Positions 44,373-63,934 of a stretch of DNA of 64,000 nt are shown one piece after another (the first letter of the stretch is position 1; the number at the start of each line of letters is the position of its first letter). Source of the stretch: an uncultured Anaerolineae bacterium (GTDB lineage: Bacteria > Chloroflexota > Anaerolineae > JACIWP01). The notes under the pieces were generated by a model, which had not been told where the DNA came from, made no database searches, and saw nothing but the letters and a program-made list of their open reading frames with translations. The translations under genes and the position numbers were made by a program. The stretch lies in contig CALIBQ010000012.1 of the NCBI GenBank assembly GCA_938049385.1, forward strand, positions 74,131 through 138,130, in the 5' to 3' direction.

Positions 44373-44439
44373 GGTGGAATCCCTCCTGTGTGGTGAGATG
44401 AATTTGGAGCATGCTGTACGCCACTGCCCATCCTTTTGT

Positions 44440-44640
44440 CCCGGCGGTCGCCCGCGGGCGTTGTGGAAGGGCTTTCGTTACGCTCAGGAGGGGAAGCGTG
44501 AGGGACGTGGCCATCCCTGGAGGCATCCGCTGATCCTTCGATTTTCTCCGCCGGCCTGGCGGATTAGCCCTGGCTCGCGTCAGGGAACCTCCCCCTCGTC
44601 AGCTCACCCGCTTGCGCAGATGAGCCCGTGCGCTGTCGCT
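44440..44640 (-). ncRNA. glmS ribozyme: glmS ribozyme (GlcN6P-responsive self-cleaving ribozyme) in the glmS 5' UTR
   Basis: Minus-strand RNA …GACA^GCGCACGGGCUCAUCUGCGCAAGCGGGUGAGCUGACGAGGGGGAGGUU…AUCGAAGGAUCAGCGGAUGCCUCCAGGG…CGUAACGAAAG matches the conserved glmS ribozyme core (AGCGCC P1, UGACGAGG-GGAGGUU, AUCGAA…CGGAUGCCUCC, CGUAAGGA) as remembered from the Bacillus subtilis ribozyme; sits directly upstream of glmS. Confidence 0.75.
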
Positions 44641-44701
44641 TCCCCACTGCGTCTTTGGAATATCTACATACACCGGCCCTCCTTTCCTCGAGGCTAACCG
44701 T

Positions 44702-49620: not shown

Positions 49621-50365
49621 ACGCGAGGTGGTGACCAGAAAACAGGGACTGCGGCGCCGCATCTACCGCATACCCTATCTGACGCGTTCGGTGCTGAACC
49701 GCCTGCTTCGCTTCCTGACCCGCCATCTGATTCGCTTTGAGATCACCGGTAAGGAGCATATCCCCCGCCAGGGGCCGCTGATCGTCTATATCAACCACGT
49801 GAACTTCCTGGACCCGGTGCTGGCCTGCGCGCTGGTACCGCGCGATGTGGTGCCGCTCTCCAAGGTGGAAAACCTGCGCCATCCGCTGATTGGCCCGCTG
49901 GCCAAGGCCTACGGTGCTATCCCGGTGCGGCGCGGCGAGCCGGATATGTACGCCTACCGCAGTGCGCTCTCGGTGCTGGAACAGGGCAAGGTGCTTCTCA
50001 TCGCGCCGGAGGGCACGCGCAGTGGGCACGGCCGGCTCCAGGAGGGCAAGGACGGCATGACCCTGCTGGCCCTGCGCACGGGGGCAGTGCTGGTGCCCAT
50101 CGGGCTGGTGGGCCAACAGCACTTCCGCCGCCGGCTTCAGCGCCTGCGCCGCACCCATGTGCGCGCCGCCGTCGGCCGGCCCTTCCGCTTCCACGCGCCG
50201 GCCGGCGTGGAAATCACCCGCGAGGTGGTGCGCGAGATGACGCGCGAGGCCATGGGCGAGCTGGCCCGGCTCCTGCCGGCCGAGTGGCGCGGCGTCTACG
50301 CCGATGCCGCAGAGGCCCCGCGCAAATGGATACGCTATGAAGACGTTTCCGCAACCAGCACCTGA
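49604..50365 (+). CDS. plsC: 1-acyl-sn-glycerol-3-phosphate acyltransferase (LPLAT/PlsC family)
   Basis: HVNFLD (HX4D) and PEGTRS motifs. Confidence 0.8.
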   Translation: MIRKPEREVVTRKQGLRRRIYRIPYLTRSVLNRLLRFLTRHLIRFEITGKEHIPRQGPLIVYINHVNFLDPVLACALVPRDVVPLSKVENLRHPLIGPLAKAYGAIPVRRGEPDMYAYRSALSVLEQGKVLLIAPEGTRSGHGRLQEGKDGMTLLALRTGAVLVPIGLVGQQHFRRRLQRLRRTHVRAAVGRPFRFHAPAGVEITREVVREMTREAMGELARLLPAEWRGVYADAAEAPRKWIRYEDVSATST

Positions 50366-51674
50366 AGCCTGCGGGAGAATCACCGGGGTGGCCGCCGGCA
50401 GTCTGGCCGCGCGCGCCGGCCTGCGCGCCGGCGACTGCCTGGTGGAGGTCAACGGCCTGCGGGTGCGTGATATCATTGATGTGCAGTACGCCGCCGCCGA
50501 GGAGTGGGTGGAGTTCGTGGTCTGGCGCGAGGGCCGGCTCCTGCGCAAAGAGGCGGAGCGCCGCTACGGCGAGGATATCGGCCTGCGCTTCGCGGATGAT
50601 CTCTTCGACGGCCTGCGCCAGTGCGACAATCACTGCCCCTTCTGCTTTGTCAAACAGCTCCCCGCCGGCCTGCGCCCCAGCCTCTACATCCAGGACGACG
50701 ACTACCGTCTGTCCTTCTTGCAGGGCAGTTTCATCACCCTGACCAATTTGACGGAGGAAGACTGGGAGCGGCTGGAGGAACAGCGCCTCAGCCCCTTATA
50801 CGTTTCCGTGCACGCCACACAGGAGGAAATCCGCCGGCGCCTGCTGGGCCGCCGCGACGCTCCACCGATTATGGCACAGCTCCGCCGGCTCATCGAGCTG
50901 GACATCACCGTGCACACCCAGATTGTCGTCGTGCCAGGGGTGAACGATGGGCATGTGCTGGAGCAGAGCTTGCACGACCTGGCGGGATTGTATCCCGGCG
51001 TGGCTTCCATCGGGGTGGTGCCGGTGGGGCTGACGCGCTTTGCCCGGCCGGCCCTGCGCCGGCCGACCCCGGAGGAAGCGCGGGAGGTGCTGGAGCAGGT
51101 GGAGCGCTTTCAGGAGAACTGCCGGCGCTGGTATGGGGTGGGCTTAGCGTATGCCGCGGACGAGTGGTACCTCACGGCCGGCCGGGATGTTCCGCCGGCG
51201 CAGGCATACGATGATTTCCCTCAGGTGGAGAACGGCATCGGACTGGTGCGGCTGTTCCTGGACGATTGGGCGGAGGTAAAAGCGCTCATCCGGCCGCCGG
51301 CCGGCGAACCGCCGGCGCTGTGCGGTGTCACCGGCCGGCTGTTCGCGCCCGTGCTGGCGCCCGTGCTGGAGGAATTCTCGCGGCTCACTGGTATCCCAGC
51401 GCGGCTGATGGCGGTGGAAAACGGTCTGCTGGGGGAGGCGGTGATGGTGGCCGGCCTGCTGGCCGGCGCGGATGTGGTGCAGGCCTATCGGAGCACTGGA
51501 CATGCGGCACCTTTGGTAGCCCTGCCGCGCCGCATGTTCGACGCACAGGGGGTATACACGCTAGATGACTGGACGCCGGCCCGGCTGGAGGCTGAGCTGG
51601 AGGCGCGCGTATGCCTCGTGGACTCTATGCGCGACCTGGCGAAGTGCGTGGGAGCGCTTGGATACCGCAGGTGA
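50337..51674 (+). CDS. PDZ + DUF512 domain protein (putative Fe-S/radical-SAM-like)
   Basis: N-terminal PDZ-like region, CDNHCPFCF cysteine cluster, DUF512-like remainder. Confidence 0.7.
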   Translation: MKTFPQPAPEACGRITGVAAGSLAARAGLRAGDCLVEVNGLRVRDIIDVQYAAAEEWVEFVVWREGRLLRKEAERRYGEDIGLRFADDLFDGLRQCDNHCPFCFVKQLPAGLRPSLYIQDDDYRLSFLQGSFITLTNLTEEDWERLEEQRLSPLYVSVHATQEEIRRRLLGRRDAPPIMAQLRRLIELDITVHTQIVVVPGVNDGHVLEQSLHDLAGLYPGVASIGVVPVGLTRFARPALRRPTPEEAREVLEQVERFQENCRRWYGVGLAYAADEWYLTAGRDVPPAQAYDDFPQVENGIGLVRLFLDDWAEVKALIRPPAGEPPALCGVTGRLFAPVLAPVLEEFSRLTGIPARLMAVENGLLGEAVMVAGLLAGADVVQAYRSTGHAAPLVALPRRMFDAQGVYTLDDWTPARLEAELEARVCLVDSMRDLAKCVGALGYRR

Positions 51675-52090: not shown

Positions 52091-53188
52091 GTGGCACCAC
52101 TGTTCCCATTCACGGCCATCGTTGGCCAGGAGAAAATGAAGCGGGCGTTGATCCTCAACGCCATTAACCCGCAGATTGGCGGGGTTCTGATACGCGGGGA
52201 ACGCGGCACCGCCAAATCCACCGCGGCGCGCGCCCTGGCGGCTCTCCTGCCGGAGATCCGCGTGGTGGCGGACTGCCGCTTTAGCTGTGATCCCGATCAT
52301 CCGGAGACCTTCTGCGATGAGTGCAAGGCCAGAGCCGCCGCCGGCGAGGCCCTGCCCGTCACCACCCGCCGCATCCGCTTTGTGGATCTGCCCGTCAGCG
52401 CTACCGAGGACCGCGTCGTTGGCACATTGGACCTGGAGCGCGCTATCCAGAAAGGCGAGCGCCATTTCGAGCCGGGCGTGCTGGCCGCCGCCAACCGCGG
52501 CCTGCTCTATGTGGACGAGGTCAACTTGCTCGATGACCATGTGGTGGACCTCCTGCTGGATTCGGCGGCCATGGGCATCAACGTGGTGGAGCGGGAAGGC
52601 ATTTCCTTTTCTCACCCAGCGCGCTTTATCCTGGTGGGCACCATGAACCCGGAGGAAGGGGAACTGCGGCCCCAACTGCTGGACCGCTTTGCCCTGTGCG
52701 TGGAAATCACCGGCATCCGCGACCCGCATGACCGCGTGCTTATCATGGAGCGCTATGTGGAGTATGAGGCAGACCCCGCCGGCTTCTATCAGAAATGGCT
52801 CCCGCAGGAACAGCGCCTCTCGCGCGAGATTGACGAGGCCCGCCGGCGTCTGCCCCGGGTCACGTATACCGACGATGACCTTTACACCATTGCCAGCCTG
52901 ACCAGCTCCTTCCAGGTGGACGGCCATCGCGCCGATATCGTCATCCTGAAGACAGCCATCGCCAATGCCGCCTTTGAGGGCCGGCTCAGCGTCACCGAAC
53001 ACGATATCGCCTGCGCCGCCGAGCTGGCGCTCCCCCATCGGCTCAAGCGCCAGCCCTTCCAGGAGAGCGAGGTGGCCCAGCAGGAGCTGGAACAGCGGGT
53101 GGCGGAGATCGTCCAGCGAACCGCCGCCCGGCGCGACGACCTGGCGGTGGCCGGCGACCGCCAGCCGGCGGAAAAAAAAACGATGTAG
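52091..53188 (+). CDS. AAA+ ATPase, magnesium-chelatase ChlI/BchI-like
   Basis: Walker A GERGTAKST, Cys insertion CRFSCDPDHPETFCDEC typical of ChlI, Walker B LLYVDEVNLL, sensor/arginine finger region; ends …PAEKKTM immediately after an A9 tract. Confidence 0.85.
   Translation: MAPLFPFTAIVGQEKMKRALILNAINPQIGGVLIRGERGTAKSTAARALAALLPEIRVVADCRFSCDPDHPETFCDECKARAAAGEALPVTTRRIRFVDLPVSATEDRVVGTLDLERAIQKGERHFEPGVLAAANRGLLYVDEVNLLDDHVVDLLLDSAAMGINVVEREGISFSHPARFILVGTMNPEEGELRPQLLDRFALCVEITGIRDPHDRVLIMERYVEYEADPAGFYQKWLPQEQRLSREIDEARRRLPRVTYTDDDLYTIASLTSSFQVDGHRADIVILKTAIANAAFEGRLSVTEHDIACAAELALPHRLKRQPFQESEVAQQELEQRVAEIVQRTAARRDDLAVAGDRQPAEKKTM
53172..53180 (+). other. A9 homopolymer at the ChlI-like/vWA gene junction (candidate slippage or frameshift site)
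   Basis: gcggaaaaaaaaacgatgtag; A10 would continue the AAA+ ORF in-frame into the vWA ORF through a Pro-rich linker DVAPDAPGTPGPSGH. Confidence 0.6.
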
Positions 53189-53226
53189 CCCCTGACGCAC
53201 CCGGCACACCAGGCCCGAGCGGCCAT

Positions 53227-54180
53227 GTGCTGAAAGGGCATCGGGCGGACCCGCTCGGGCAGGGGCATTTCGGCCAGGCCGTTGTGCCGGTGAAGACGGG
53301 CGAGGTATTCAAACCCCGCCGGCTGGAATCCCCGCTGGACCGGCTGGTGCGGCGCACCGCCGGCAAACGCAGTTATACTTTGACTTCGCGCAAGCGCGGC
53401 CGCTATATTGGGAGCCGGCCGGCGAGCGGTCGGGTCACCGACCTGGCCCTCGATGCCACCATCCGCGAGGCCGCCCCCCATCAGGTGTATCGCCGGCACA
53501 TCTCTACCGCCTTCATTATTCAAAAACAGGACCTGCGCCAGAAGGTGCGCGTGCGCCGCGCCTCCAACGCCATCCTTTTCGTGGTGGACGCGAGCTGGTC
53601 CATGGCCGCCGCCAAACGCATGGAAGCCACGAAGGGCGCTATCCTCTCCCTGCTCATTGACGCCTACCAGCGCCGCGATTACGTGGGCCTGGTCGTCTTC
53701 CAGAAGGAGCGGGCGCGGCTGGTCCTGCCGCTGACCAACAGCGTGGAGCTGGCCCAGAAGGCGTTGAAGGACATTCCCGTCGGCGGCAAGACGCCTTTAT
53801 CCAGCGCCCTCCTGCTGGCGTACCGCGTGCTGATGCGGGAGAAGCGCCGGCATCCGGAGACTATGCCCATGATGATCCTGCTGACAGACGGCGCCGGCAA
53901 CGTCTCCCTCACCGACATCCCGGCGCAGGAAGAGGCCCTCATGCTGGCCCGCTATATCCGGCACAGCCCCATCCATTCGGTGGTGATTAACATGGAACAT
54001 ACGGCATTCGATCGCGGCCTGGCACAGGAGCTGGCGGATGCCTTGAACGCCCCTTGCTACTGCTTGCACGAGCTGAAGGCCTCCGACCTGTACGCCACCG
54101 TGCGCCGCGAGATCGAACAGAAGCAACCGCATGCCCAGGGAACGCCCCATGCCGGCACAACAAACACCTGCTCTGCCTAA
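53227..54180 (+). CDS. von Willebrand factor A domain protein (ChlD/BchD C-terminal-like); probably the 3' part of a frameshifted ChlD-like gene
   Basis: ILFVVDASWSM MIDAS-type vWA motif; annotated start is a GTG with no SD; the frame is open upstream back into the A9 tract. Confidence 0.7.
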   Translation: MLKGHRADPLGQGHFGQAVVPVKTGEVFKPRRLESPLDRLVRRTAGKRSYTLTSRKRGRYIGSRPASGRVTDLALDATIREAAPHQVYRRHISTAFIIQKQDLRQKVRVRRASNAILFVVDASWSMAAAKRMEATKGAILSLLIDAYQRRDYVGLVVFQKERARLVLPLTNSVELAQKALKDIPVGGKTPLSSALLLAYRVLMREKRRHPETMPMMILLTDGAGNVSLTDIPAQEEALMLARYIRHSPIHSVVINMEHTAFDRGLAQELADALNAPCYCLHELKASDLYATVRREIEQKQPHAQGTPHAGTTNTCSA

Positions 54181-55093
54181 ACAGCTCATCGCTGATTGCG
54201 CGCTCCTGCTGGTTACCGCGATCTGGGGCGCGACCTTCGTCATGGTCAAAGGAGCGGTACAGGCTTTCCCGGTGTTCGCCTTCCTGAGCATCCGCTTCGC
54301 CCTGGCCCTGCTGTTCCTACTGCCGGCACTGCTGTGGCGCTGGCGCGCCGGCCGGCAGTCCTGGCATCGGCCGACGCTCCGGGCAGGCATGCTGGTGGGG
54401 CTGGCCCTCTTCGCCGGCTACGCGTTCCAGACCTTCGGCCTGCAGTACACCACGCCGGCCAAGGCCGGCTTTATCACCGGCCTCTCGGTAGTTATGGTGC
54501 CGCTCTTCTCCGCCGCGCTCCTGCGGCAGGCCCCCGACCGCGCCGCCGTCGCCGGCGTCATCATGGCCACCGCCGGCTTGGCCCTGCTCACCTGGCAGGG
54601 CGAGCTGACAGTGGTGCTGGGGGACATCCTGGTGCTGGCCTGTGCGCTGTCCTTCGCCATGCATATTATCGCGCTGGGAGCATTTTCCCCGCGCATGGAC
54701 AGCCTGACCCTGCTGGCCGTACAGATTGCCACCGTCATGATCCTCAGCCTGGGGATTTCCCTGCTGACCGAATGGCCCTGGCCGGCCCTGCCGGCGGAGG
54801 TGCTGGGCGCGGCGGCCTTCACCGGCGTGGCCGCCACGACGGTGGCCTTCGGCATTCAGACAGCGGCCCAGCGCTTCACCTCCCCGACCCATACGGCGCT
54901 GATATTTGCGATGGAGCCGGTCTGGGCAGGGCTGTTCAGCTTCTGGCTGATCGGTGAGCGTTTGGGAGCGCGTGCCCTCGCCGGCGCCGGCCTCATCCTA
55001 GCCGGCATGCTGGTGGCGGAGCTGATGCCGGCACTCCTGGCGGCCAGGCGCCGGCAAGGCCGCTTCTCCTCAGGGGAGCGGTGCGCGGGATAA
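54149..55093 (+). CDS. EamA/DMT-family transporter
   Basis: 10-TM duplicated EamA architecture. Confidence 0.8.
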   Translation: MPAQQTPALPKQLIADCALLLVTAIWGATFVMVKGAVQAFPVFAFLSIRFALALLFLLPALLWRWRAGRQSWHRPTLRAGMLVGLALFAGYAFQTFGLQYTTPAKAGFITGLSVVMVPLFSAALLRQAPDRAAVAGVIMATAGLALLTWQGELTVVLGDILVLACALSFAMHIIALGAFSPRMDSLTLLAVQIATVMILSLGISLLTEWPWPALPAEVLGAAAFTGVAATTVAFGIQTAAQRFTSPTHTALIFAMEPVWAGLFSFWLIGERLGARALAGAGLILAGMLVAELMPALLAARRRQGRFSSGERCAG

Positions 55094-57635: not shown

Positions 57636-59870
57636 TTACCGGCTGTTCACTAGTTCGCGAAGCTGTTCCAACCAGTGCAGGAAGGGATTGCGAGGCACGG
57701 CCGGCTTCACTGCCGGCAGTTGCTCCGAAACAACATCCCCGCCTGGCTGAGAAACCACCTGAAACGCCTTTCCGCCCACCACGAAGATGACGTCCTGCCC
57801 CAGGGCCAGGTACGCCGCGCATTCCGGGTACTGCTCCAGGAGCTGGAAATAGGCCGGCGAGGCGAACGCCACCTTCACAGCCGTCATCCGGGATGGGTCA
57901 TAGCGGGTATCGGTCCAGACCCCCTGCCGCAGGATGAACGCCTTATCGCCCACATATCGCACCTCTGCCGGCGCCGCCTGCACCACCTGCTCCACACCCC
58001 GCAGGGCCTGCACGGCCATGCTTTTCTCCACCGCGCCGGCGCCTACCGCCGGCTCCGGCGCCATCAGGCGCAGTTCGTCCTGCGCAATTTGCGCACGCCC
58101 CTCTTCTGTCAGCACATATTCCGGCTCTTCCACCAGGAAAGCGGTATAGGGCGTGATAATGCCGTAGCGCACGCTCAGGTCAATGAGTTCCTCCACCAGT
58201 TCGCGGTTCTCCCCATGCAGGCGAATCTGGTCCAGCAAGTAGCCGACCTTGCGCGTGGCCCACAGCCGCGCAACGAACGCCGGCCCGCCGGCGTCGGTGA
58301 ACCGCAGACCCTCGTACACGTATTCCTCCAGCCGGCCGTTCACCTCCCCGCGCAGGGTGATGGTGGTTGTCCCGCCGGCACGATAGCGGCCGGCGACCAC
58401 CAACTGCGAGCCGAGGAAGATATCCGGTAGTGGGTCGGGATACAGCTCCATCACGTGCAGGTCCCCGAAGTCCAGCGCCGGCGCGACCAGCAGAGGGGCG
58501 TTAATCTTGGCGTACAGCGCGGAGACCTTCTCGTCAATGCGCTCCTCCGGCAGGACATAGGTGGCGACCCCGCCGTGCCGTTGGGTGATGGTGTCCAGGA
58601 GCAGGGTGTTGACGTCATAGCCGACGCCGAAGGCGAAGATGCGCGCCTGTTTGCCGGCCGCCTCGTCCACCGCCTGGATGATGCGGTCAATGTCGGTTAC
58701 CCCCTCAGTGGGCAGGCCGTCGGTCAGGAACAGCACCACGAAGGGCCGGCGGGTATCCTCTGCCAGCGCCAGCGCCTCCAGCAGGGCACGGTGGATGTTC
58801 GTTCCGCCGGCGGCTCGCAGTCCCTCGACGTAGCGTACAGCCTCTGACGCCTTGCCCGCCGGCTCCAGCCGGCGGGAGAAGCTGCGCACGCCGGTGCTGA
58901 AATCAATGATGTTGAAGCGGTCCTCGGACCGCAACTGCTCCAGGATGTAGCGCGCCGCGGCCTTGGCCTGTTCGATCTTCTGACCCTGCATACTGCTGGA
59001 GGTATCCAGCACCAGCACCACATCGCGCGGGACGATTTCCTCCTGGGGCCGGCGGTCGTCCGGCGTGATGAAGAGGAGGAAGAAGCCGTCCTCGCCGGCC
59101 GGCCGATAGCTGATGAGATTCACGGCGAACGGGTCATCGGCCGTGCTGAAGTAAAGGGCAAAATCCTGGTTCGGCAGGACGTTGTTCGCCTCGTAGCCGA
59201 TGCGCGCACGCCGCTCGTCGAGACGCTCGACGGCCACCTCGTGGCTGGGAGAATATACCGCCCGCAGGGGGGCGTCCGTCGAAAGCTCCACCGCGATGCT
59301 CACGCTCTGAATGGGGCGGGCGGAGAAGCGCTCCGTGTCCAGTGGGTAGACGTACTGGTACAGGCCGTTTTCCCGGCGCAGGGTCTGGGTGTAGGAGATT
59401 TGCACGCGGCGCTCGCCGCCGGCGGGGATGGGGAAAATGCGCGCCTGGAACGCGCCGCGCCCTACGTACTCCAGCAGGGCAGGGTCGCGCTGCCGGCGCA
59501 CGATTTCCTCATAGATGCGCCGCGCCTCCTCCCGGTCCAACAGCTTCCCTTCCAGCCGCTGGCCGTCCACGATGAGGTCGAACTGCGAGATGGCGGCGTC
59601 CTCCGGCAGGGGGAAGACGTAGGTGCCCTCAACCGGGAAGCGGGACTCATTGACGAAGACCTGGTCCACTTTGGTCTCCGCCACCATGCCTTCAATGTGC
59701 ACTTCCACATGATGGTAGCGGATGGTCAGTGCCGGCGGCTCCGGGATAGGCGGTATAATGGGCGGCGGGTCCGGGATAATGATGCCGTCGGCCAGGGCCG
59801 GCGGAGCCAGCATCAGACATAGCACCAGCGCCATGCATCCGATCAGCCAGCGGCGCATTATGCGCTTCAT
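57636..59870 (-). CDS. Secreted VIT (vault inter-alpha-trypsin) + vWA domain protein
   Basis: Signal peptide MKRIMRRWLIGCMALVLCLMLAPPALA, N-terminal VIT domain, vWA MIDAS VVLVLDTSSSM. Confidence 0.85.
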   Translation of the reverse strand: MKRIMRRWLIGCMALVLCLMLAPPALADGIIIPDPPPIIPPIPEPPALTIRYHHVEVHIEGMVAETKVDQVFVNESRFPVEGTYVFPLPEDAAISQFDLIVDGQRLEGKLLDREEARRIYEEIVRRQRDPALLEYVGRGAFQARIFPIPAGGERRVQISYTQTLRRENGLYQYVYPLDTERFSARPIQSVSIAVELSTDAPLRAVYSPSHEVAVERLDERRARIGYEANNVLPNQDFALYFSTADDPFAVNLISYRPAGEDGFFLLFITPDDRRPQEEIVPRDVVLVLDTSSSMQGQKIEQAKAAARYILEQLRSEDRFNIIDFSTGVRSFSRRLEPAGKASEAVRYVEGLRAAGGTNIHRALLEALALAEDTRRPFVVLFLTDGLPTEGVTDIDRIIQAVDEAAGKQARIFAFGVGYDVNTLLLDTITQRHGGVATYVLPEERIDEKVSALYAKINAPLLVAPALDFGDLHVMELYPDPLPDIFLGSQLVVAGRYRAGGTTTITLRGEVNGRLEEYVYEGLRFTDAGGPAFVARLWATRKVGYLLDQIRLHGENRELVEELIDLSVRYGIITPYTAFLVEEPEYVLTEEGRAQIAQDELRLMAPEPAVGAGAVEKSMAVQALRGVEQVVQAAPAEVRYVGDKAFILRQGVWTDTRYDPSRMTAVKVAFASPAYFQLLEQYPECAAYLALGQDVIFVVGGKAFQVVSQPGGDVVSEQLPAVKPAVPRNPFLHWLEQLRELVNSR

Positions 59871-63858: not shown

Positions 63859-63934
63859 GCCACCGTAGCTCAATCGGCAGAGCAGGCGCTTCGTAAGCGT
63901 CTGGTTATCGGTTCAAGTCCGATCGGTGGCTCCA
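63859..63934 (+). tRNA. tRNA-Thr (anticodon CGU)
   Basis: Manual cloverleaf: acceptor GCCACCG/CGGTGGC, D-stem GCTC/GAGC, anticodon stem GGCGC/GCGTC with loop TTCGTAA (anticodon CGT), T-arm ATCGG-TTCAAGT-CCGAT, discriminator U, encoded CCA. Confidence 0.85.

Follow-up and report, generated by a model that had tools for sequence, protein, structure and literature searches.

A probable fs-chlD type chelatase gene, decoded in two ways at a run of nine adenines, in an uncultured Anaerolineae bacterium

Background

Chelatase genes in which one locus gives two products through a change of reading frame have already been published under the name 'fs-chlD'. The locus described here, at positions 52091 to 54180 on the forward strand of a 64-kb stretch of DNA from an uncultured Anaerolineae (Chloroflexota) bacterium, is another orthologue of that family; this whole stretch is referred to as the window, and all coordinates are positions within it. 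Antonov et al. (2013) reported 23 chelatase genes with a -1 frameshift in Pseudomonas, Burkholderia, Delftia, Herpetosiphon (Chloroflexi) and methanococci (PMC3711429), and reporters carrying chelatase cassettes in E. coli gave shifting of 63% at A11, 40% at A9 and 10% at A7 (PMC3711429). The site A_AAA_AAR is listed as conserved under purifying selection in the review by Atkins et al. (2016), and fs-chlD genes were described by Antonov (2020), as cited and summarised in PMC9227772. Within Anaerolineae, they have been recorded in Anaerolinea thermophila, Ornatilinea, Longilinea, Levilinea and Brevefilum by Kuznetsov et al. (2022; PMC9227772), who found some of the genomes to be without the large subunit and without a B12 or chlorophyll pathway, the function there being stated as unknown (PMC9227772).

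In the window locus, as in these genes, an AAA+ open reading frame (ORF) is followed by a poly-A slippery site and then, in the -1 frame, by a vWA ORF, and the two products would be a small ChlI-like and a medium ChlD-like subunit. The phylum is also the same (Herpetosiphon in 2013, the Anaerolineae genera in 2022) and, as in the 'stage 1' genomes of 2022, there is no adjacent large-subunit gene. Nothing essential differs: the window belongs to a lineage of uncultured Anaerolineae, represented by a metagenome-assembled genome, that is unnamed in those papers. Two possible additions to the knowledge of fs-chlD are a division of the orthologues into those with A7 plus a hairpin and those with A9 or A10 and no hairpin, and the closure of both off-frames after the run.

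The other well characterized parallel is dnaX, whose tau and gamma products arise in E. coli by -1 programmed ribosomal frameshifting at A_AAA_AAG and in Thermus thermophilus by transcriptional slippage at a 9-nt homopolymer (PMC5009743). As is proposed for the window, slippage on an A-run in one gene gives two AAA+ products with a common N-terminus, which enter one complex. A further likeness is that homologous genes use ribosomal or polymerase slippage, and that the shift may make either the long or the short form. The protein family and function are however different, and the shift leads to the short product in E. coli and Thermus but would lead to the long one in the window. Finally, the BchI/BchD and ChlI/ChlD subunits of solved structure (1g8p, 2x31, 6l8d, 8osf) have the same ATPase motifs, vWA domain with MIDAS and ChlD domain order. 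They are encoded by two genes instead of one, whereas the window protein carries an extra four-Cys cluster, scores below the equivalog level and has no ChlH or CobN partner in view.

Architecture of the locus

The locus is very probably a single fs-chlD type gene for a chelatase medium subunit, decoded in two ways by programmed recoding, as judged from its sequence and that of its relatives. The zero frame, as given by the ORF list and its translation, is an AAA+ ORF at 52091..53188 (+) that begins at GTG 52091, with GAGG 10 nt upstream, and encodes a short product of 365 aa and 40.7 kDa. Towards its end, nine A's occupy 53172-53180 (+). By direct reading of the sequence, their context is ...ccggcggAAAAAAAAAcgatgtag... 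and the interval 53160-53240 is ...GCCAGCCGGCGG AAAAAAAAA CGATGTAGCCCCTGACG... The initial annotation had the number of A's right, its interval of 53171-53180 taking in the g that precedes them. Over the run, the zero-frame codons are GAA AAA AAA ACG ATG TAG, and the TAG at 53186..53188 (+), 5 nt past the run, ends the short product with ...PAEKKTM*, just as had been annotated. The heptamer A_AAA_AAA lies at 53173-53179 in the X_XXY_YYZ phase with respect to the zero frame, so that two Lys-tRNAs could slip by -1 in tandem.

The -1 frame, already open before the run, continues to a stop at 54178-54180, and the zero and -1 frames are both open over an overlap of 208 nt. To change frame, the ribosome must shift by -1 or, with the same effect, the mRNA must gain one A; the '+1 slippage' first proposed is accurate for the transcript, the ribosomal shift being -1. 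With one A more, the reading runs on without interruption through the junction ...PAEKKNDVAPDAPGTPGPSGHVLKGHRADPLG..., as the initial annotation had written it, into the -1-frame continuation at 53179..54180 (+). This comprises a linker (NDVAPDAPGTPGPSGH, 53179-53226), a conserved block (PVKTGEVFKPRRLESPLDRL, 53287-53346) and the vWA domain. Joined at the run, the two parts form a ChlD-like long product of 696 aa and 77.2 kDa, the fusion and the short product having been estimated beforehand at about 75 and 40 kDa; the tryptic peptide that spans the junction is NDVAPDAPGTPGPSGHVLK. The remaining frame, +1, meets a TGA at 53193..53195 (+), four codons past the run (...RCSP*), so a transcript one A shorter would also yield a short product.

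The run is exceptional within the window. No other homopolymer longer than 6, of any base, is present in the 64 kb, and the two A8 matches observed, against 0.11 expected per dinucleotide shuffle, overlap each other inside the one A9 run. The anomaly pointed out initially is thus real, the GC content of the window being 64.9% and not the 67% then assumed. Among the Lys codons of the window's genes, AAG is used 90 times and AAA 49 times.

In the public annotation, a separate 'VWA domain-containing protein' begins with the GTG at 53227..53229 (+), 38 nt past the upstream stop. A search for GGAGG, GAGG or GGAG in the 5-16 nt upstream of this GTG found none, in agreement with the initial remark that it lacks a Shine-Dalgarno (SD) motif, and on the sequence it is probably not a genuine start; the conservation data given below point the same way.

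In the scheme proposed, standard decoding would halt at TAG 53186 and release the 365-aa ChlI-like AAA+ ATPase, while in a fraction of expression events a one-base shift at the A9 run would give the 696-aa ChlD-like protein with AAA+, linker and vWA parts. By analogy with BchI/BchD, the short and long products would assemble as a mixed AAA+ complex, so that the frequency of the shift would set their ratio. The shift might be reached by two routes: RNA polymerase may add one A on the 9-nt homopolymer, or the ribosome may slip back one base on A_AAA_AAA.

Protein families and motifs

Both halves carry recognised domains. The upstream ORF matches Mg_chelatase, AAA_5 and AAA_lid_2 of Pfam, and the downstream ORF matches VWA and VWA_2. 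It is the fusion that passes the NCBIfam model TIGR02442 ('putative cobaltochelatase'), covering positions 1-640 of 641 with 788.2 bits (cut-off 779.45), and the halves alone remain below that cut-off, with 512.9 and 266.0 bits. The vWA part aligns with the BchD structure 2x31_A. The AAA+-linker-vWA architecture of ChlD/BchD, claimed initially from the order of the ORFs, is borne out by this full-length match and alignment. The cut-offs of the equivalog models for the magnesium chelatase subunits are narrowly missed by both products: the short one scores 448.8 against 466.95 for BchI/ChlI (TIGR02030), and the fusion 424.2 against 499.55 for BchD/ChlD (TIGR02031). Residues 4-327 of the short product align with the solved ChlI 8osf (E 3e-107), and also with BchI 1g8p.

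The catalytic motifs are intact in the AAA+ half, namely Walker A (GERGTAKST, 52196-52222, +), Walker B (LLYVDEVNLL, 52502-52531, +) and the sensor/Arg-finger block (NPEEGELRPQLLDRF, 52646-52690, +). The same holds for the MIDAS motif DASWS (DxSxS) of the vWA domain, at 53587-53601 (+). Since the motifs of both halves are preserved, both products look functional, as far as can be judged from sequence.

A separate feature of the AAA+ half is a four-Cys cluster, C-x3-C-x8-C-x2-C (CRFSCDPDHPETFCDEC), at 52274-52324 (+). The solved ChlI and BchI proteins have no cysteines at these positions. Each of the four is kept in at least 73 of 81 sequences (the window and the 80 orthologues introduced below), and all four are absent from the orthologues L056 and L074. 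The cluster may form a knuckle that binds Zn or Fe.

Conservation of the arrangement

Orthologues were scanned with one genome per species. This gave 80 loci, all but one labelled as Chloroflexota and mostly from Anaerolineae, with protein identities of 65-98%; the closest are L001 (98%) and L002 (92%). The frame analysis covered the 79 loci that have both halves on the contig. The vWA part is in the -1 frame in 69 of them, fused in frame in nine and at the opposite offset in one, so that the comparison of orthologous loci suggested in the initial annotation does reveal fused genes. In all 69 loci in the -1 state the overlap contains an unbroken A-run (A9 in 51, A10 in 10 and A7 in eight), and no A8 run occurs among the orthologues. 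The genomes range from 47 to 66% GC and come from different studies and assemblers.

The frames on either side of the shift are closed soon after the run. Taking the 69 loci together with the window, the zero-frame stop is found within 5 nt past the run in 51 of 70, and a +1-frame stop within 10 codons is present in 94% of the A9 loci compared with 29% of random in-gene sites. In the window itself, the zero frame closes two codons and the +1 frame four codons past the run. This closure of both non-fusion frames is in keeping with selection that favours a clean short product whenever fusion does not take place.

By contrast with these closed frames, the -1 frame is conserved as peptide from the run onward: the window, L001 and L002 share KKND.APD.PG.P..SGHVLKGH, a stretch that begins upstream of the annotated GTG. 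In L024 and L050 a Pro codon stands in place of this GTG, yet the LKGH.AD motif after it is kept. Within 150 nt past the run, only four of the 70 loci have a possible -1-frame start codon (ATG, GTG or TTG) accompanied by an SD-like motif, and the window has none. The observation that the initial annotation had named as speaking against recoding, separately initiated vWA genes with good ribosome-binding sites, has at most these four loci in its favour, and the recoding reading stands.

The length of the tract was also followed in near-identical assemblies. All 16 independent assemblies of a sister population that were retrieved through the short product (from JGI, ENA, Logan and NCBI) have A9, and a search of metagenomes with the flanks only, leaving a free gap between them, brought one further contig, also with A9. 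No tract-length polymorphism is seen among these 17 assemblies, 16 of which were selected through the split product.

Four of the loci outside the -1 state deserve a separate mention. In L015 (1266-1274), L068 (5071-5079) and L043 (1248-1257) the gene is fused in frame although a run of A9 or A10 is present, and a stop lies 0-5 codons away in each of the two other frames; the motif of L043 is that of the majority plus one extra A. These loci could represent a mirror arrangement in which, comparably to Thermus dnaX, the short form is the product of slippage; alternatively, the assemblies could be in error at the homopolymer. The fourth, L056 (5073-5081; isolate MFD02979, uncultured Chloroflexia), has an A9 run with its vWA part in the +1 frame, and fusion would require one A fewer or two more. 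Its offset possibly stems from a homopolymer miscall, as the assembly may be a long-read one.

Downstream RNA structure and the level of slippage

Two kinds of signal are found in the orthologues. In all eight A7 loci (L006, L007, L010, L013, L021, L044, L062 and L075) the run is in the X_XXY_YYZ phase, and a GC-rich hairpin lies 7 nt downstream (for instance at L007:5077-5135), with a mean z of -1.9 and compensatory changes in three of six pairs. This is the classic layout of a ribosomal frameshift. Past the A9 and A10 runs, on the other hand, no structure recurs consistently (mean z -0.7 and -0.2). The comparison suggests two signal architectures, and possibly two mechanisms, in one orthologous gene.

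The window is of the A9 type and nevertheless has a candidate structure downstream, at 53188..53266 (+), as a putative stimulator. Its outer stem, GCCCCUG/CAGGGGC, begins 7 nt past the run. The multibranch fold has a minimum free energy of -43.2 kcal/mol with z = -1.86, and 10 of 200 shuffles are as good, so that it is not unusual for its composition. The window, L001 and L002 have a consensus fold in common, in which only one pair is compensatory; as these three sequences are 94% identical, covariation cannot decide on the structure of the window.

With its uninterrupted run of about 9 nt, the length of the RNA polymerase hybrid, the locus also has the kind of tract on which transcriptional slippage of the Thermus dnaX type occurs (PMC5009743). 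Bacterial RNA polymerase slips efficiently in vivo at 9 A or T, and its RNA:DNA hybrid measures 9-10 bp (PMC5009743). On account of this match in length and of the known efficiency of such slippage, a mixed mechanism with a substantial polymerase component is held to be the most likely. We think that both routes contribute; that polymerase slippage takes the larger share at an A9 tract without a proven 3' stimulator has about an even chance of being correct, a purely ribosomal shift being less likely and other routes making up the rest.

Gene neighbourhood and public annotation

The gene lies between a DUF512 gene (PDZ plus radical-SAM-like) upstream, at 50304-51674 (+), and an EamA transporter downstream, at 54131-55093 (+), whose start overlaps the end of the vWA ORF. 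The order DUF512, fs-chlD, EamA is kept in species-level relatives (L081-L096), and EamA follows the chelatase gene in 12 of 80 broader loci. Other orthologues are flanked by unrelated genes of the housekeeping kind. Clustering of the neighbours at all loci, as a clue to function, returned an S1-domain protein, an M19 dipeptidase, ClpB-like proteins and others, none of them informative.

No gene of CobN/ChlH size and no B12 gene was found among the neighbours scanned in the window, the largest window ORF being an iron-sulphur flavoprotein of 1045 aa, and the scan of neighbours brought no cobN/chlH or B12 gene near any orthologue. In the 417-nt gap upstream of the chelatase gene, Rfam detected neither a cobalamin riboswitch nor any other known RNA. 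Elsewhere in the window it recognised only a glmS ribozyme/riboswitch at 44416-44645 (-), with 48.5 bits against a gathering score of 37, and a tRNA at 63859-63931 (+). A second vWA protein, unrelated to the first, is encoded 3.5 kb downstream at 57636-59870 (-); it has 744 aa, with VIT and vWA domains and a hydrophobic, signal-like segment at its N-terminus.

Both NCBI and JGI split this locus and its near-identical relatives into an 'ATP-binding protein / Mg-chelatase subunit ChlI' and a 'VWA domain-containing protein / magnesium chelatase subunit D'. Public databases contain no 696-aa product for the window locus or for these relatives. The contig from which the window comes is 139,527 bp long.

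Weighing of the explanations

The public division into two genes would have the vWA protein initiated on its own from GTG 53227, through coupling or re-initiation behind the AAA+ ORF, whose stop lies 38 nt earlier, and would reduce the A-run to mere Lys-Lys codons. The presence of the GTG allows this, but it has no SD-like motif, it is replaced by Pro codons in two orthologues, and conservation of the -1-frame peptide already sets in before it. Start codons with an SD motif are as rare among the other loci as reported above, the uninterrupted A7-A10 run in all 69 loci would be left unexplained, nine orthologues are fused in frame, and TIGR02442 is passed only by the fusion. Two independent genes are hence rejected as very improbable. 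Still less credit is due to a DNA-level phase variation in which the tract would mutate between A9 (split) and A10 (fused) and so turn the long product on and off heritably. Tract length does differ among orthologues (7, 9 or 10), and L043 combines the majority motif with A10 and an in-frame fusion. A mixture of states would however be expected, instead of a -1 state kept over deep divergence, and the 17 near-identical assemblies show no length polymorphism, with the reservation that the split product served to select 16 of them. The initial annotation had also left room for a sequencing error or a frameshifted single gene; the corresponding explanation is a sequencing or assembly error in the homopolymer, or a normal fused chlD that has recently become a pseudogene. 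Homopolymers are the classic sites of such errors, and the in-frame L015, L068 and L043 with A9 or A10, together with the opposite offset of L056, mean that some tract-length calls among the orthologues may be wrong. For the window, this explanation is rejected as extremely improbable: the same arrangement recurs in 69 of 79 loci from different studies and assemblers at 47-66% GC, A9 is found in the 17 independent assemblies of the sister population, and both halves keep intact motifs and a coding-type conservation. The programmed production of I-like and D-like subunits from one locus, which the initial annotation had set beside the error, is the alternative that these same data and the TIGR02442 match of the fusion uphold.

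If the recoding is real, it might also be purely ribosomal, a -1 frameshift on A_AAA_AAA stimulated by the structure at 53188-53266 and with no part for RNA polymerase. This is the published reading of the family, with its A_AAA_AAR shift site. In its favour, the window heptamer is correctly phased, as are all of the A7 runs, which are followed at 7 nt by a hairpin with covariation, and the clade of the window keeps a potential stem at the same spacing. The structure of the window is however not significant (z -1.86), the sequences that share it are too alike, at 94% identity, for covariation to bear on it, and 61 of the 69 orthologues have A9 or A10, the length of the polymerase hybrid, without a consistent structure, while slippage of RNA polymerase at 9 A/T is efficient in bacteria. 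A purely ribosomal shift is therefore a possibility to be taken seriously, if not the one favoured here.

Several points weigh against the preferred reading, that of programmed recoding by a mixed mechanism. The shift in vivo, its efficiency, whether it takes place on RNA or on the ribosome, and what the complex does are all inferred from sequence, and the reporter cassettes came from other species and were assayed in E. coli in a way that left transcription and translation undistinguished (PMC3711429). One motif (GAGGAAAAAAAAACTTAA) is common to many of the 69 loci, so that their counts are not independent observations; similarly, retrieval through the split product biases the sample of near-identical assemblies toward the A9, split state. 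The candidate stem of the window has the right spacing, which would favour the ribosomal route. Lastly, as no cobN/chlH or B12 gene lies near the window gene or its orthologues, the function of 'cobaltochelatase subunit' is unsupported here.

A broader reading would join these elements. Across Chloroflexota, one orthologous gene would have exchanged a ribosomal -1 shift (A7 with a covarying hairpin) and slippage of RNA polymerase (A9/A10 without a stimulator, the type of the window), a few lineages having flipped to a gene fused by default with the short form made by slippage. The ChlI/ChlD-like pair with its four-Cys cluster would then be an orphan AAA+/vWA motor without CobN/ChlH, acting on a substrate other than a tetrapyrrole. 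Taken as a whole, this picture is tentative and rather unlikely to hold in all its parts.

Conclusions

The locus is a clean example for correcting a split annotation. Because the gene is divided automatically, the 77-kDa product is missing from protein databases, and this extends to hundreds of Chloroflexota genomes. Under the recoding reading, the gene would be a further example, well conserved, of a two-subunit AAA+ machine whose stoichiometry is governed by homopolymer slippage, and the chelatase family would offer a natural system for comparing ribosomal with polymerase slippage.

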